Below are positions 51,554 through 63,959 of a stretch of 64,000 nt of DNA, in pieces. The position numbers and the translations under genes were made by a program. Source of the DNA: Candidatus Kaiserbacteria bacterium. Its GTDB lineage: Bacteria > Patescibacteriota > Minisyncoccia > Phycocordibacterales > UBA918. The notes under the pieces were generated by a model. It ran no database searches. It saw only the letters and a program-made list of their open reading frames with translations, and was not told the origin of the DNA. Within the stretch, counting starts at the first letter, position 1. Every line of letters begins with the position of its first letter. The DNA is taken from contig CP064968.1 of the NCBI GenBank assembly GCA_016699245.1, forward strand, positions 283,386-347,385, written 5' to 3'.

Positions 51554-52626
51554 GATTGTGTTTCTTCTTCGATTGTTTCTTCGTTCAGTAATCGTTGTTT
51601 ACGTCTCCAGAGTGCATAAAATACAAGCGCGGTTATAAGTATAATAGTCCCCGTTACGATTATAGTGGTAATGAGCATGTCACGAGACATACTACGAAGT
51701 GCAGTATCAGGAACCAGAGTTACAACACGAATGTTACCTGCCTTATCAATAGCTTTTACACGAATCGTGCTATTCAGGGTTTGATCCTTGAGTACATAGG
51801 GACTTTCAGTTTCAATCCACGGCGCGTCTGCACGTCCCCATCTGAATGCACTGAACTCTGCAAATGGTTCTTCCATTACTTCATAGTGATCAATACCAGA
51901 TTGTTTGTCGTTTGAATTAAAGACTATGAAGTATTCATTATTAAATGCAACATCGTCTTTGGTAAGAGTAATGGTAAAGTCTGAAGGAATTTCGTTGTCA
52001 CTGCGCACATCATCCTTCCACGTGTCTTGGATTTGGGTACCTGCGGTATCTGCTAGATTAATACGTGCTTCTTGGAGTTTGAGTGGTGCTGGAGTACCGC
52101 TCCCATCATGTAAGAGCACTTGTGAACTTTCATCGAGCCAAATACGAGGCGATTTATTATCGCTTCCGCTACCAATCGTGAAGCCTGGTGATTGAAAAAC
52201 GATTTCAAGTACCATATTGGTAAGACTTGGATCACCCGCGATACGTCCACAATAGCCACCAGGCAATCCTCCAGCAAAACGAATGGTGTGGTTTATCTCA
52301 TCAATTTTTGGAGATTCAACCCAGAGGTTCAAAATAGAATCACCGCGAGAAATATCGACAGCGTTGAGTGCTGCATCATAATGAATAGTAGCATCGACAG
52401 TATTAACACACTCTCCTTCATCAGTATCAAGGCGAAGTCCTACCGTGACACTATTTCCCCGAAAAATATCAGCGCTTCCAGGATCAAAGTACAATGTTGC
52501 AGCGTGCGCATGTGTGGCAATCACCCCAAAAAATAATACAGCAAAAAAAGCAATACGCACTCGTATATCCATCATATAACTAAAAGTATACCAAATCGTA
52601 ACCTTAAAAGGAGGGGGACTGTACAC
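51550..52626 (-). CDS. Cohesin-like domain surface protein with a C-terminal transmembrane anchor. Paralog of the gene at 49808..51553.
   Basis: ATLYFDPGSADIFRGNSVTVGLRLDTDEGECVNTVDATIHYDAALNAVDISRGDSILNLWVESP...RFAGGLPGGYCG. Transmembrane helix LITTIIVTGTIILITALVFYALW. 4-nt overlap with the downstream gene. Confidence 0.6.
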   Translation of the reverse strand: MYSPPPFKVTIWYTFSYMMDIRVRIAFFAVLFFGVIATHAHAATLYFDPGSADIFRGNSVTVGLRLDTDEGECVNTVDATIHYDAALNAVDISRGDSILNLWVESPKIDEINHTIRFAGGLPGGYCGRIAGDPSLTNMVLEIVFQSPGFTIGSGSDNKSPRIWLDESSQVLLHDGSGTPAPLKLQEARINLADTAGTQIQDTWKDDVRSDNEIPSDFTITLTKDDVAFNNEYFIVFNSNDKQSGIDHYEVMEEPFAEFSAFRWGRADAPWIETESPYVLKDQTLNSTIRVKAIDKAGNIRVVTLVPDTALRSMSRDMLITTIIVTGTIILITALVFYALWRRKQRLLNEETIEEETQS

Positions 52627-52685
52627 AGACCGAGAAGGCTTTCGTTATTCTTAACTTCAATATCAAAGACTCAGAAAATAAGTCT

Positions 52686-53024
52686 CTACAGAACCAACTC
52701 ACCTTCTTTTGGCTTAGTGGCATCCACATCAGTAGGGTGTAATTGACATTTTTGGAGACATTTATCTCTAAAGTAGATTGCTCCAATCCGTCTAATAGTC
52801 TCAATATTCATCCCTTGGGTGTAGGCAAAATCTTTAAATATTTTATCTGTTTCTTTATCAAATTCTATGTCATCAAACAGATCAAAGACTTTCTCTTGAA
52901 TTTCGTATGCTGAAATGTCGCAATTATAACCGCATTTTTGATGCAGTTCATTCTCATGGGAATCAATATAGGTTTTCATGCCACTATCTTTCAGAACACG
53001 TTCACCTTCTGTAAGTAAACGCAA
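52686..53024 (-). CDS. Hypothetical protein, 112 aa, with a TTG start. The frame is open a further 141 nt upstream without an ATG.
   Basis: ORF with Cys/His spacing HQKCGYNCD...CLQKCQLH. The alternative start is an internal ATG at 52979. Confidence 0.35.
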   Translation of the reverse strand: MRLLTEGERVLKDSGMKTYIDSHENELHQKCGYNCDISAYEIQEKVFDLFDDIEFDKETDKIFKDFAYTQGMNIETIRRIGAIYFRDKCLQKCQLHPTDVDATKPKEGELVL

Positions 53025-53261
53025 CGGGGAGGCATTACCAATCAGTGTTAATCTCTTATTATCTTTGGCAATACTCTGATTGTTAGCAATATCTTTAATA
53101 CCATCTTTTATTTCACCAATACTTTTTGTTAGCCAATCAACATTTGTTTTCCTTAAACTCGCTTACCGCTACAATTCTTTCCAAACCCCCCACCCAACCT
53201 GTGGTAATTATACTTTATTTTATAAATTATTTCTTTGAACTTGTATATAACTAAAATATTT

Positions 53262-53660
53262 GGAGACAGAATCCGAAATTATTGTCGCTTCGCTCTGTAA
53301 TTTCGGGTCACGGCCTCAGAAAATATAGGGGCTTGGGAAATTGATTCCGTCTTCGCGCAAAAATTTTTAGGAAAATGCGCGGCCTCAGAAAATATTGGGG
53401 CTTGGTATATAGATTCGCTACGGGGTCTTACGACGTCACTTTTTCTTCCGGGGGGAAGAAAAGGTCTCCTTTTTCATTATGAGAGAAAAAGGAGACAGGC
53501 TCCAAAATTATTGTCCTTACAGGACCTGTCCACTCATTGGGTCTTTTGTTTCACTTCATTCACAAAAGCCCTCAATGAGTCTTGCAAAGTGACATTTAGT
53601 CCTGTCACGCGGCGTGGGCCGGCCTCCAGAAAATATAGGGGCTTGGATATAGGATTTTCC
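53262..53660. repeat. Composite dispersed repeats in a 700-bp intergenic region. Two S-units are 5' ggagacagNNtccRaaattattgtc, and three R-units are ggcctc(c)agaaaatatWggggcttgg.
   Basis: S1 is at 53262-53292 and S2 at 53491-53520. R1 is at 53312-53336, R2 at 53381-53405 and R3 at 53621-53646. A 12-bp perfect hairpin GTCTCCTTTTTC/GAAAAAGGAGAC lies at 53464-53496, and the palindrome CTGTGACgaaGTCACAG at 53679-53695. Confidence 0.7.
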
Positions 53661-53743
53661 TTTTTCTGTGACGAAGTCACAGAAAAAAGGAAAAACCCTT
53701 CTCGTGGTGGGAGATAGGGTTTTCCTTATTCTTGTACTGTTGC

Positions 53744-54880
53744 TTAGAACGTCGGAGTTGCTACATAGCGCAGTGTCGTAGTGTAGTCGTCACCTGCTTC
53801 TTGCAAAGCCGAAATTTGAATCTGATAGCCGACACGTGCAGCACCGGAGTTTATTGTTGTTCCATCAGAGGGACCATTATGGCCCATGATAGCAATCGGT
53901 GTTGTACTTCCAGAAACCCACTCATTCGAGCCGAACTGTACAGATCGGGCAAGAATTGCTGTGTCATTTGAGGTTAATCCCCAATGACCATAGGAATTTG
54001 GATTTGCAATCAGACCTCCTGGACCCTGCCATGCCGAAGGCGTAACAGTGTTTGTCCCATCGATGAAGCCATCGATAGTCGCACCAGTTGTAGATTGCAA
54101 GCTGCCTGCTTGTTGAACTGTTACGGTGTAGCCTACTGAGGCGTTCGTCGAAACAGAGAGATCATGCGCAAGTGTACGTGATACTCCGATTGGCAAATTG
54201 CCAAAAGGAAGTGTTGTTGGGGTTGAGGTTGCAATAGTGGTCGTGGGACTACCGTTTACTGTTGAACTGGAATTTACTCCAGTGACCGTAAAGGTGAGTG
54301 ACGTATCCACATTTGCCGAAACCGTAACCTGGTCAACAATTGCAACACGCATCTCTCCTGAATCTTGCATCGTACCCGCAATTGTAATTGGGTATGATGT
54401 CGTAGCAGATGGATTTACAATTTTTATAGCACCGCCAGTAGCATTTGAACCAATCTTAATTATCATATCTGATGATGAAGCGGTTCCGCCGTCTGTTGGT
54501 GTCTCGAATGTAATCGCATCTGTACCAATACCAGTCACTCCCCATGTACCTGCCCCACTCGCACCCGCAAGCGTTTGATCAACCGTATTAACACTGAGGT
54601 CAATATCGCCGATTAAAACTCCTGAAGTGTCGAATTGTGAAGCAAAAGTAACAGTAAAGTTTGAGCTTGTTGCCATACCATTTGGTAGTTCAAAAGCTAT
54701 TGTGTGGTTTGATGTTACAGAAGGTGCTGAGTTGCTCAGCGTATCACTTGCGTTGGTGATTGATGCCGCCTCCGCAAAGCGGAAGAATGTTGGAAGACCA
54801 GTACTCCAAAGGAATAAGGCAAGTCCAACCGTCATCGCAACAGCCTGAAGAGTTCGCACGGTTCTTGCCGTGTGAGTCAT
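53744..54880 (-). CDS. Secreted protein, 378 aa. Its N-terminal leader and C-terminal domain of about 150 aa are homologous to the termini of the 2465-aa giant protein.
   Basis: N-terminus ...FFRFAEAAS (giant: HIAEAAEA). C-terminus SLTFTVTGVNSSSTVNG..TTLPFGNL...VGYTV...HWGL...TLRYVATPTF, against the giant's SLDFTMEGIASSTVVEG..TTLPFGKL...EGYQI...AAWTT...RIRYVSVPIF. Confidence 0.6.
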   Translation of the reverse strand: MTHTARTVRTLQAVAMTVGLALFLWSTGLPTFFRFAEAASITNASDTLSNSAPSVTSNHTIAFELPNGMATSSNFTVTFASQFDTSGVLIGDIDLSVNTVDQTLAGASGAGTWGVTGIGTDAITFETPTDGGTASSSDMIIKIGSNATGGAIKIVNPSATTSYPITIAGTMQDSGEMRVAIVDQVTVSANVDTSLTFTVTGVNSSSTVNGSPTTTIATSTPTTLPFGNLPIGVSRTLAHDLSVSTNASVGYTVTVQQAGSLQSTTGATIDGFIDGTNTVTPSAWQGPGGLIANPNSYGHWGLTSNDTAILARSVQFGSNEWVSGSTTPIAIMGHNGPSDGTTINSGAARVGYQIQISALQEAGDDYTTTLRYVATPTF

Positions 54881-55175
54881 AGGCTTTTCGTTGTATTAAT
54901 CAATACATTGACTCTAATAATGAGTAGTGCGTAGTTGGTGCTCTTTCCAACATAAAATTGCACTCCGCAAACACGAAAGTCTCCACCTCTCTAATGTTCA
55001 CTTTCAATGTATTACGCCTACCCAACAATGCCCGGCTGTGAGCATTTGCAGTAGAGACGTATTACTACCTCCTACAAGCGATATACACTCCTCACATGTG
55101 TGGACTGCATACCTCAAGTAGGCGTAACTTCATTGTAGCGTATGAGAAAATAATTTGCGTGAGTTATACACAAGA

Positions 55176-55350
55176 TTGAAATAGAGAATAGAAAATATGG
55201 AATATGGAATAGGACAACACTTCGTGTTGATTTTATATTCCATATTTTCTATCTTCTATTCTCTATTTTCTATTCCCTATCTTCTATCTTCTATTCCCTA
55301 TTTTCTATTTTCTATTCTCTATCTTCTATCTTCTATTCTCTATTCACTAT
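55176..55350. repeat. Palindromic microsatellite element E1. Arrays of the 8-mer AGAA(A/T)ATA / TTCTAT(C/T)T in inverted orientation around a GC core caacacttcgtgttg.
   Basis: Lies directly downstream of the stop of gene 55352..56479. The two arms are (agaataga/aatatgga)n and (ttctatct/ttctattc)n. Confidence 0.8.
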
Positions 55351-55351
55351 T

Positions 55352-60683: not shown

Positions 60684-60880
60684 TAATAGAAAATTGAGAA
60701 TATGGAATAGAGAATATAGGATAGAAAATAGAAGATAGAAAATAATAGGAAATAGAGAAGATATAGATAAATATTCAACCATCTCTATCCTCTATCCTCT
60801 ATCTTCTATCTTCTATTATCTATTATCTATTTTCTATTTTCTATCTTCTATCTTCTATTCTCTATCTTCTATCTTCTATA
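60684..60880. repeat. Palindromic microsatellite element E2. Same 8-mer inverted arrays. The core is atattcaacc, not a GC palindrome.
   Basis: Fills the entire gap between the ABC ATPase stop (60883) and the permease start (60670). Confidence 0.8.
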
Positions 60881-62205: not shown

Positions 62206-62212
62206 AAGCTAT

Positions 62213-62400
62213 GAAATAGAAAATATGGAATAGAAAATGTATGAGATAGAAAATAGAAGATAGAAAATAGAAGATAGAACAACGCTTCGCGTTGTTTCAA
62301 GATTTTCAATTTTTACTATTCTATATTCCATATTTTCTATTTTCTATTCTATATTATCTATCTTCTATCTTCTATTTTCTATTCCATATCTTCTATCTTC
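62213..62400. repeat. Palindromic microsatellite element E3. Same 8-mer inverted arrays around a GC core gaacaacgcttcgcgttgtttc.
   Basis: Fills the gap between the stop of gene 62400..63959 and the ABC ATPase start (62205). The core is similar to that of E1. Confidence 0.8.
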
Positions 62401-63959
62401 TAACCATTTATATTTTTAACCCAACCGAAGGTGCTCTCGAAGTTTTCAATAATAATGTCGATGATATTCTTTTCTTGAATAGGCGTAAAAAGCACAAAGT
62501 TTTCTGACTTCACACTATTCTTAGATTCGTCTGCACAATCAAGCCAAAACTGATACACCGTTGCTGGTGCAAAATCGACAATCACCTCTACATGCTGCAT
62601 AGCGAAACCAGTGTCTTTTGAATCAATAACCGTAGGTTCAATACCACCGGTAATACCTTCACGATACGAGAGAGCACAATGGGCTGGTTCATCCGTAATC
62701 CATTCTATAATTGTTTGAATACGTGACTCCCCGCCCGGGAAGAGTGTGGATTCGTTCGTCACATTACTGATGATTGGTGGTGCTGTGTCCTTTACCGTAA
62801 TAAAAGTAATTGGATTGCTCTTTACACGGTCGCCACCTGCGTTTTCTGCAATAACAAAAGCAACATACCGTGTACCTAATGTAAGGTCAGAAATACGCAT
62901 TTGATGATTGGTGGCGAGGGTAGGACGACCTATTGAGTTTTGGGTACCCTTCGTCAAGTCTTGATACTCGACGAGTGCTTTTGCTGGAACTGTAGTGTCC
63001 CACGCGAGTGTTGCGGAGTTTTCCTCCACTTTCAAAATACGAAGATTTTTTATATCAGGGCGTGATGCCTTTGTCTTGAATGTATAATCACGGCTCTTCC
63101 CCTCAATACCGTATGTGTCTTTCGAACGCACTTGGAAATGATACTCGGTATATGGATCAAGACCAATCACGCGTACCTCGTGGTCAGTGGTATTACCACC
63201 CGTACTTGCTTGAGAGAAGGCATATTGACCTTCGGTATATGTATCTGATGGAGAAAAAAGAACTTCAGAACTAGATTCACGGTCGGTAGTCCATTTTACG
63301 AGTGCACTTGTGGTTTCTACAATCACCGTCGGAGGACCCACAATAGTGAGATCTTCGGTAATACCTTGAATTGCTTTTACCGTTTCATTGAGAATTTCTT
63401 GGAGTTTTTCTGGCGAATTGATTTGTTTAATTTGTTCGAGCACTTCTTGCACGGTCTGTGATTCAGATTGTGACTGTGATTGTGATTCAGACTGAGACTG
63501 GCTTTCACTCTGCACTGTTTGGCTCGTCTCAGTCTGCGTTTCTTTACCCTCCCCTGCTTCAGCGCCAGATTGTGGGTCACCGTCAGTGACTACTTTATAG
63601 TTTGCAGAAATGCCCTGATTCCCATCAGCATCTGAAGAAACAACGCGAAAATAGTAGGTACGACCAGGTTCAAGGGTATTCAGCGTTACAGAATGCTCAG
63701 TACGAATCGCTTCAGGAATACGTACGGTACCGTAATCTTCTTGAAGTCCATAATTAATAGTTGAATCAGCATCTTCATCAGTCTGCCAGGTAATCGTCAC
63801 TGTATCTTCCGCAACGTTGGTGATTTGCACATTCGTGATATCAGGCGGTACCGTGTCTGCAGCATGCACAAGAGGAGAGACCTGTGCAAAGTACACAATA
63901 CAAAAAAGCGTTACTACCGCTGTTGAAAGCGCTCGAATCATGTACAGTAAGTGTACCAC
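62400..63959 (-). CDS. Secreted protein with 3-4 fibronectin type III-like domains and an SQSESQ low-complexity linker.
   Basis: Signal peptide. The FN3 pattern is PPDITNVQITNVAEDTVTITWQTDEDADSTINYG...LEPGRTYYFRVVSSDADGN, repeated (KNLRILKVEENSATLAWDT...). Confidence 0.6.
   Translation of the reverse strand: MVHLLYMIRALSTAVVTLFCIVYFAQVSPLVHAADTVPPDITNVQITNVAEDTVTITWQTDEDADSTINYGLQEDYGTVRIPEAIRTEHSVTLNTLEPGRTYYFRVVSSDADGNQGISANYKVVTDGDPQSGAEAGEGKETQTETSQTVQSESQSQSESQSQSQSESQTVQEVLEQIKQINSPEKLQEILNETVKAIQGITEDLTIVGPPTVIVETTSALVKWTTDRESSSEVLFSPSDTYTEGQYAFSQASTGGNTTDHEVRVIGLDPYTEYHFQVRSKDTYGIEGKSRDYTFKTKASRPDIKNLRILKVEENSATLAWDTTVPAKALVEYQDLTKGTQNSIGRPTLATNHQMRISDLTLGTRYVAFVIAENAGGDRVKSNPITFITVKDTAPPIISNVTNESTLFPGGESRIQTIIEWITDEPAHCALSYREGITGGIEPTVIDSKDTGFAMQHVEVIVDFAPATVYQFWLDCADESKNSVKSENFVLFTPIQEKNIIDIIIENFESTFGWVKNING

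Follow-up and report, generated by a model that had tools for sequence, protein, structure and literature searches.

Hairpins and short direct repeats between bacterial genes are known from several kinds of system. Intrinsic terminators, which include bidirectional and tandem forms, consist of a stable GC-containing stem-loop followed by a U-rich tract. Other 3' stem-loops stabilise mRNA: these "retroregulators", among them the Bacillus thuringiensis cry terminator and the malE-malF repetitive extragenic palindrome (REP), block 3' exonucleases and set the ratio of neighbouring genes. Tandem small RNA (sRNA) arrays such as LhrC1-5 and PrrF1/2 repeat an RNA body together with its terminator, and arrays of clustered regularly interspaced short palindromic repeats (CRISPR) need regular spacing and variable spacers. 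The REPs and bacterial interspersed mosaic elements (BIMEs) of Enterobacteria and Pseudomonas, which go with REP-associated tyrosine transposases (RAYTs), are short imperfect palindromes that form modular, strand-specific mosaics in gene 3' flanks and are dispersed in tens to hundreds of copies (PMC3116915; PMC3337134). GCGNAGC mini-hairpins are DNA motifs of single-stranded DNA (ssDNA) priming sites and of the hairpin promoters of phage N4 (PMC13037366). The locus considered here lies in a stretch of 64,000 nt from Candidatus Kaiserbacteria bacterium (assembly GCA_016699245.1, contig CP064968.1, positions 283,386-347,385 of the forward strand), referred to below as the window. It is the spacer behind the gene of a 378-aa protein, and it holds two short repeats, R and S, together with about ten hairpins. 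This R/S mosaic has yet to be described, although it fits best as a variation on systems already known.

In the reading proposed here, a terminator hairpin, T1, and an adjoining hairpin, hp2, come first, and behind them, at a hot spot of insertion and recombination, lies a mosaic of hairpin modules and fragments derived from terminators. The probability given to this reading is roughly 0.45, and it is built on the observed anatomy, orthology, conservation, covariation and hot-spot behaviour of the region. The comparison covers nine usable orthologous loci with 76-90% protein identity. The stop codon of the 378-aa gene lies at 53744 and, because the surrounding genes are all on the minus strand, the repeat region is the 3' flank of this gene and is read on that strand, here called the sense strand. 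A first reading from the letters alone (the sequence-only reading) had placed three R repeats, two S repeats and strong hairpins in an intergenic region at 53040-53743. The repeats and hairpins were found where it had placed them, and the part from 53151 to 53743 is non-coding; positions 53040-53150, in contrast, hold the 5' end of a truncated gene copy. Compared with shuffled sequences, the 496 nt at 53250-53745 fold far better on both the minus (z = -6.9) and the plus strand (z = -6.7). The features of the region are collected in Table 1.

Table 1. Features of the spacer behind the 378-aa gene (window coordinates).
Feature	Position	Strand	Description
T1, predicted terminator hairpin	53689-53725	minus	Immediately follows the stop codon of the 378-aa gene; GGAAAACCCTATCTC-CCACCAC-GAGAAGGGTTTTTCC
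hp2	53655-53693	minus	5' arm is the U-tract of T1; tip CTGTGACgaaGTCACAG; inverted repeat I2
R3	53621-53646	minus	One extra C; orphan 3' arm, sense CCAAGCCCC-TATATTTTCTG-GAGGCC
R2	53381-53405	minus	One mismatch; orphan 3' arm
R1	53312-53336	minus	Exact R copy; orphan 3' arm
S1 hairpin (hpA)	53271-53309	minus	CCGAAATTA-cagaGCGAAGCgacaa-TAATTTCGG; only intact family member in the window
S2	53491-53515	minus	Orphan S-type 3' arm (GACAATAATTTTGG) plus CCTGTCTCC; runs into hp12
hp12	53464-53496	minus	Perfect 12 bp, GTCTCCTTTTTC-N9-GAAAAAGGAGAC, then CTTTTCTTCC on the sense strand; inverted repeat I6
Hairpin	53438-53465		ACTTTTTCTTCC-GGGG-GGAAGAAAAGGT; contains cttccggggggaag, named by the sequence-only reading; inverted repeat I9
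Hairpin	53589-53608	minus	GTGAC..GTCAC; minimum-free-energy structure; single copy in window
Imperfect 47-nt hairpin	53533-53579	minus	Minimum-free-energy structure; single copy in window
Hairpin	53513-53525	minus	GTCCTGTAAGGAC; minimum-free-energy structure; single copy in window
AT-rich stretch	53151-53261	minus	Separates S1 from the truncated gene; not matched in any related locus
5'-truncated gene copy	52686-53150	minus	Family of 170-191-aa membrane proteins of the candidate phyla radiation (CPR); insertion remnant
Extended -10 promoter of the next gene	52585-52595	minus	TTTGGTATACT, 10 nt before the ATG at 52575; far end of the variable spacer

The fixed part of the spacer begins with T1, a 14-pair hairpin with an A-tract before it and the U-tract TTTTTTCT (53681-53688) after it. 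In its GC-containing stem, its tracts and its place directly behind a gene, T1 resembles an intrinsic terminator and may be classed as one by these features. With these two tracts on its flanks, it is proposed to be usable in both directions. The 34-nt core of T1 is identical in three related loci and differs by one base in the others, and in three loci it contains a G-U pair that is valid on the sense strand only. Two properties set it apart from an ordinary terminator. The sequence of T1 is invariant across genomes that are saturated at silent sites, which a terminator does not need, and its U-tract is sequestered by hp2. The stem of hp2 is perfect or near-perfect (12-20 bp) in eight of the ten loci compared, while its apical sequences read GTGAC/GTCAC, GGGAC/GTCCC, CTCGATGGC/GCCATCGAG, CCGGTGC/GCACCGG or TTTGT/ACAAA. 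The stem thus covaries, its pairing being kept by compensatory change. The palindrome CTGTGACgaaGTCACAG, already picked out by the sequence-only reading, is the tip of this hairpin, which has 18 bp in the window.

The other fixed element is the extended -10 promoter of the next gene, whose motif TTTGGTATACT stands at the same distance in L030, L031, L032, L038, L039 and L041. About 35-60 nt upstream of it, the window, L030, L039 and L041 keep the palindrome CTGTGTACAG (52619-52628, minus strand), which could be an operator. Between the two ends the spacer varies. In L039 (190 nt) and L041 (100 nt) it comprises T1, with or without hp2, and the next promoter, and nothing more. Because these two spacers hold the fixed elements only, the R/S part is dispensable. 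Sequences of the R/S type occur in the spacers of the window, L030, L032 and L038.

On the plus strand, R reads GGCCTC(C)AGAAAATAT(A/T)GGGGCTTGG. The likeness of its three copies extends over as much as 37 nt (53311-53347, 53380-53416 and 53621-53657), and their start-to-start distances are 69 and 241 nt. The two S copies (53262-53286 and 53491-53515) are 88% identical. Shuffles of the window gave zero R matches, and zero S copies are expected by chance. As direct repeats of one orientation between genes, R and S recall CRISPR arrays, but the spacing is irregular and the would-be spacers are hairpins conserved in other genomes, so the dismissal of CRISPR by the sequence-only reading is upheld. 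That reading also raised the matter of copies elsewhere in the genome. The rest of the 64-kb window holds no further R or S. Exact-pattern scans with the R variant of the window gave 27 matches in the GTDB representative genomes, nearly all of them one conserved coding motif (PENMGAW) or chance, two chance matches in the JGI metagenomes and none in IMG/VR; the 16-nt R core, scanned in IMG/VR only, gave 27 single chance matches. Copies of R and S do exist at the orthologous locus of other Kaiserbacteria.

It is these orthologous copies that reveal what R is. In L030, which has 90% protein identity, R forms the 3' half of an intact hairpin, CCCAGAAAATAAGGGGC-GAA-GCCCCTATATTTTCTG (-19.1 kcal/mol, z = -3.9). 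With its stem GGGGC-GAA-GCCCC, the following UAUAUUUUCU, a matching A-rich arm and a position behind the gene, this hairpin has the properties of an intrinsic terminator. The same hairpin stands at the R3 position in L032 and L038, with the tip GAGCG(A/C)AGCGAC. R3 is the site at which these three loci keep the intact hairpin; the window has lost its 5' arm and the T1-like hairpin T3 that preceded it. The R copies of the window do not fold (z = -0.1 to -0.9 for each R with the 20 nt upstream) and, having no 5' arm, lack the stem-loop of a terminator. The 16-nt R core, TATATTTTCTG(A/C)GGCC, lies on the sense strand in 9/9 instances from four genomes. A plus-strand hairpin inside R (GGCCUC/GGGGCU, with two G-U pairs) was set aside as a coincidence, since it occurs only in the variant of the window and not in the relatives.

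The 3' arm of the S1 hairpin plus CTGTCTCC makes up the S repeat at 53262-53286. L032 has a corresponding hairpin, CCTAGAAGTTA-..-TAACTTCTGG, that is contiguous with hp12; it differs from S1 by one compensatory change from A-T to G-C and keeps the tip GAGCGAAGCGAC. Because S1 and the S hairpin of L032 align column by column with the R hairpins of the relatives (alignment A7), R and S are regarded as 3' arms of one hairpin family, in which an A-rich arm leads through a GCGNAGC tip into a T-rich arm with a tail. A single covariance model of this family (named "R1") recovers all of these hairpins. It finds the S1 hairpin at 55 bits (E = 2.5e-11) with no other match in the window, and no member outside the spacer in 72 kb of related loci. 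The inventory of the window is therefore one intact member, S1, and four orphan arms, R1-R3 and S2.

The conservation of these units was judged against fourfold-degenerate codon sites of the 378-aa gene, which are 50-63% identical between the window and L032 or L038. Module A, comprising R1 and, next on the sense strand, the S1 hairpin, is about 85% identical to L032 5262-5347, where the fourfold sites are 50% identical. Module B consists of R2 and, next on the sense strand, the hairpin hpB (53354-53381); it can be aligned to L032 5459-5525 and to L038 3732-3798. It keeps the R core and the loop TTCCTAA, while its stems are compensatory (GCGCA/TGCGC, GTCGC../..GTGAC and GTCTG../..CAGAC); between L032 and L038, two pairs of hpB are changed on both sides. 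The hairpin hp12, the perfect 12-bp hairpin of the sequence-only reading, matches L032 5340-5375 at 34 of 36 positions, with differences in the loop only, and on the sense strand it has the stem-loop and U-rich tract of an intrinsic terminator. Its neighbour at 53438-53465, a 12-pair hairpin that contains the reported palindrome CTTCCGGGGGGAAG, was scored terminator-like on the plus strand and, because the two stand back to back, each gives the other a U-rich tail. Pairs changed on both sides between homologues in hp2, S1 and hpB are those expected of selected hairpins, a descriptive rather than statistical result because the covariation of each module rests on two to three sequences. Overall, the region holds conserved blocks that are about 85-100% identical between genomes at 50-63% fourfold identity, and such elements are therefore probably functional or mobile.

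The proposed explanation accounts for these features as follows. T1 would be an intrinsic terminator working both ways, with hp2 folding its U-tract back. The variable spacer would have been filled with copies and fragments of a single family of terminator-like hairpins of the design given above, the GCGNAGC tip being borne on a short GC stem. R would be the T-rich 3' arm, triplicated after the loss of the 5' arm, and S the 3' arm of a sister hairpin, of which the S1 copy would still be intact. Intact hairpins in the sense transcript might serve as extra terminators or as stem-loops that protect the 3' end, and they would shield the operon that lies downstream under a promoter of its own. From the orphan R arms by themselves, little or no activity would be expected. 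The mosaic itself would have arisen by local duplication, deletion and insertion, at a site that also took up an accessory gene (now truncated) here and transposase genes in relatives. We infer both the terminating or stabilising activity of the hairpins and the non-function of the orphan arms from this architecture. The retroregulators offer a parallel for stabilisation, as they too are stable hairpins behind a highly expressed gene, but several units here are fragments unable to fold, and the activity of the others is a predicted one.

A number of observations weigh against this explanation. The R core is identical at 14-16 of 16 positions between orthologous modules, hp12 at 34/36 and module A at about 85%, values too high for relics, so that at least some modules are under selection or were recently exchanged. 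Over 25-37 nt, the orphan R arms share 88-100% identity while the sequence between them is unrelated, a pattern left unexplained by simple tandem duplication and later decay. On paper, most members of the family are weak terminators, with A/U-rich stems and mismatched tips, and the termination ascribed to T1 is a prediction. Moreover, the GCGNAGC motif is far more stable as DNA than as RNA (PMC13037366), and its strict retention at the tip hints at a role at the DNA level.

The main rival, judged unlikely, takes the hairpin modules as non-autonomous mobile or recombining DNA, similar to REP/BIME or to miniature inverted-repeat transposable elements (MITEs), that accumulates at a landing site. 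A transposase or recombinase would recognise the modules as folded ssDNA, and R would be a conserved recognition or junction sequence beside variable hairpins. The spacer is an insertion hot spot and has been rebuilt often in evolution. L032, L031 and L044 are 85% identical at fourfold sites, yet they have three different spacers, while modules are nearly identical between distant genomes. The order of the modules is shuffled between L032 and L038, and L039 and L041, which are closer to the window, have no modules at all. Such patchy presence between close relatives speaks against a simple vertical, essential role. In addition, the same spacer carries transposase genes in several relatives: a RAYT-like Y1_Tnp gene of 219-221 aa with its own inverted GC-rich flanking palindromes in L031 (5294-5953), L036 (4303-4968) and L037 (1880-2545), and an IS1595-family DDE transposase with terminal inverted repeats in L034 (1555-2238). 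A literature search for RAYT-like genes in CPR bacteria did not turn any up. In L038 (3385-3500), the 3' half of T1 (CACCACGAGAAGGGTTTTTCATTT) is partly duplicated around an insert of about 100 nt, which looks like the footprint of an insertion within the terminator. Many homologues of the 378-aa gene lie on contigs of 1.2-1.4 kb; because so many of these contigs measure only about 1.3 kb, metagenome assemblies evidently break on both sides of the gene, which fits strain-variable or repeated flanks and is counted in favour of mobility.

The comparison with REP/BIME-RAYT systems is nevertheless incomplete. The likeness lies in the modular and strand-specific mosaic of short imperfect palindromes in a gene 3' flank and in the Y1 gene with inverted palindromes at the same site in relatives. 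REPs are dispersed, whereas R and S, within the window and the 72 kb of related loci searched, occupy one locus: neither R, S nor any other family copy recurs in the remaining 63 kb of the window or, in those relatives, anywhere beyond the spacer, and this lack of dispersed copies weakens the mobile reading. The window contains no Y1 homologue (best tblastn E = 0.31); a tblastn match at 53519-53593 that might have been a RAYT pseudogene remnant (E = 2.4) lies inside a hairpin and was rejected as chance. The palindromes flanking the Y1 genes of L031 and L036 are unrelated to R and S and so do not tie these repeats to a cognate transposase, and no terminal inverted repeats or target duplications are definable. 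The GCGNAGC tips, all of them GCGAAGC or GCGCAGC, are a further point in favour of mobility, being those of the DNA mini-hairpins in ssDNA priming sites and N4 promoters; the L030 copy even has the 5-bp stem and GAA loop of the N4 early-promoter hairpins (PMC13037366). Yet the likeness amounts to 7 nt, with no ssDNA replicon, primase signal or N4-type RNA polymerase in evidence.

The sequence-only reading saw in the region a candidate sRNA or a multi-promoter regulatory region. In its developed form, each R would be a weak promoter with a -10 element only (TATATT) that starts a short sense RNA with a protective 5' hairpin, yielding an sRNA array or extra promoters for the operon. Such an arrangement is improbable. 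Each copy of the hexamer, TATATT or AATATT, does retain both critical -10 positions, R is invariably sense-oriented, and in several modules a hairpin with RNA-like conserved loops and compensatory stems starts right after GGCC. Furthermore, because T1 upstream should stop read-through, a sense RNA from the modules would need a start of its own. However, upstream of the hexamer stands GCCCC or GCGAC, with neither a TG nor a TTGACA-like hexamer, so that R has neither the -35 element at 16-18 nt nor the TGn of a sigma-70-type promoter, and a promoter scan called no site at R. The two promoters of the locus that are conserved across relatives are, in contrast, extended -10 promoters, TTGTGyATAACT for the 378-aa gene and TTTGGTATACT for the next, with the cores TGnATAACT and TGnTATACT. 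In addition, R is paired inside a hairpin in L030, L032 and L038, and, given how dense hairpins are in the background, the occurrence of one directly after each R is not significant (p about 0.09).

With respect to sRNAs, no terminator closes the putative transcripts and no promoter-terminator pair bounds a small RNA. The Rfam 15 covariance models found one tRNA only in the window at gathering score and no family in the region at gathering score or E <= 10; the best score within 53000-53800 was 25 bits against a threshold of 88. Tandem sRNA arrays share with R and S the same-orientation direct repeats between genes, but what is repeated here is a piece of 16-37 nt rather than an RNA body with its terminator. 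The interpretation offered by the sequence-only reading is thus partly supported overall: the -10-like TATATT stands, whereas nothing specific speaks for the promoters or the sRNA. Integron attC sites, dif sites and iterons were also considered and rejected on spacing and sequence.

The orientation of the modules also bears on a role in RNA. They might be processing or regulatory sites in the 3' untranslated region (UTR) or in read-through RNA of the 378-aa gene, a rather improbable alternative in which the U-rich single strand with its hairpin would be a site for an RNase or an RNA-binding protein, a source of 3'-UTR small RNA, or a partner of the 5' leader. In support, the orientation is sense-specific, single-stranded blocks are conserved beside covarying stems, and G-U pairs valid only in the sense strand occur in T1, in the outer stem of module A (GAGGC/GUCUC) and in module B of L032 and L038. 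RNA-level control of the 378-aa gene is also plausible because the gene has a conserved structured leader. Against it, the modules sit behind a strong terminator, and many relatives with the gene, the leader and T1 have no modules. Moreover, the covariation is statistically light at two to three sequences per module, and no partner sequence was shown to covary.

The leader is of interest in its own right. On the minus strand at 54881-55173, about 280 nt of leader separate an invariant promoter-like TTGTG(T/C)ATAACT from the 378-aa gene, and this leader is conserved in ten Kaiserbacteria loci. Its consensus structure has 71 pairs in nine helices, with 98.4% of cells paired (28-49% in slid controls). 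Seventeen pairs are changed on both sides, a number reached by none of 500 shuffles, and several loops are invariant. The leader has no Rfam match even at E <= 10 and is a strong candidate for a new cis-regulatory RNA. The loop of T1, CCACCAC, is complementary to an invariant GGUGG in a loop of the leader (GAGGUGGAGAC, about 54995-55005), and both sides are invariant; a contact between the two ends of the transcript is conceivable on this complementarity.

It is very improbable that the R/S part is simply functionless debris whose likeness between genomes stems from recent horizontal replacement of the whole spacer through its conserved flanking genes. The patchy distribution, the minimal spacers, the orphan arms that do not fold and the adjoining truncated gene would all be explained. 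The compensatory stems and conserved loops of modules A, B and hp2 argue otherwise, as they show selection on structure after divergence, and whole-spacer transfer is not seen because the flanks between shared modules are dissimilar. A broader possibility, also unlikely, is that the units of R core and hairpin, with their strictly retained GCGNAGC tips, are elements of a kind undescribed so far in Kaiserbacteria: either locus-bound modules that serve as ssDNA recombination or landing sites for cassette exchange, or structured 3'-UTR RNAs that work together with the 5' leader.

The remaining features of the spacer are less widely shared. Among the three hairpins in 53513-53608, only the one at 53513-53525 has a look-alike, in L038 (GTCCCTGTAAGGGAT). 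The AT-rich stretch holds a TATAAT and an out-of-frame ATG, with AAGGA before the ATG and the product MLIG-stop. A 12-mer, TTTTAGTTATAT, occurs on the minus strand right after S1 (53245-53256) and again between the downstream promoter and its ATG (52574-52585). The two copies flank the AT-rich stretch and the truncated gene (E = 0.34), and the pair could be an insertion-junction microhomology or chance. A coding reading of the spacer was rejected, as there are stops in all frames and the mini-ORFs from module A or hp12 are not kept in L032.

The small open reading frame (ORF) beyond the AT-rich stretch was described by the sequence-only reading as open far upstream of its TTG start. The open frame is real, but it is there because the gene lost its first 36 codons and not on account of an unusual start: in a tblastn search, residues 37-187 of P0121 align at 83% identity, while residues 1-36, including the transmembrane helix, are unmatched. 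The family has an N-terminal transmembrane helix and conserved cysteines and gave no match in Pfam, PHROGs, NCBIfam or PADLOC. Intact homologues (L045, L046 and L047) occur in unrelated intergenic spots of CPR genomes, such as the nusG-rplK gap of a Nomurabacteria genome, and none is present at the orthologous position in any related locus. By its distribution the family behaves like a small mobile or accessory gene, and its truncated copy, as an insertion remnant, fits the hot-spot picture. R and S as the ends of a mobile cassette of this ORF were rejected, since the intact homologues stand in three other contexts with no R or S nearby.

The gene content of the window is bacterial, with F-type ATP synthase alpha and beta, UvrABC, TGT, an ABC/FtsX transporter and many proteins with immunoglobulin (Ig) domains. 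A search of the region against phage genomes returned nothing relevant. The order of the orthologous genes is kept: 614 aa, 308 aa, 373 aa (Big/dockerin), 379 aa, the spacer, 338 aa and 580 aa (cohesin/Big_13). A hypothetical protein of Candidatus Kaiserbacteria matches the 378-aa protein at 100% identity, and more than 880 homologues, of nearly constant length, share 63-90% identity with it. The 378-aa protein has a hydrophobic helix at the N-terminus and beta-rich domains. It is a secreted surface protein, and its gene is highly conserved and presumably strongly expressed. Nothing was found for it in Pfam, PHROGs, NCBIfam or PADLOC, no relative appeared on viral contigs, and its low-confidence structure model (mean predicted local distance difference test score, pLDDT, 58) matches generic Ig-like adhesins or pilins only. 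Elsewhere in the window, at 55230-55351, 60685-60879 and 62210-62402, intergenic arrays of a 7-nt unit (AGATAGA or GAATAGA) lead into a short GC hairpin, whose loop is often GAA, and on into a complementary TCTATCT array; each whole makes a giant imperfect hairpin, 80-100 pairs long, behind a gene.

CPR bacteria are uncultured, and their transcription signals and mobile DNA are almost uncharted. The conserved terminator and the two conserved extended -10 promoters of this locus provide reference signals for Kaiserbacteria. The locus also illustrates how terminator hairpins may be duplicated, broken and reshuffled at an insertion hot spot, and it cautions against taking every short repeat with a TATA-like core in a spacer of this kind for a promoter. 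Should the modules prove to be mobile or active as RNA, they would be the first such elements described for the lineage.

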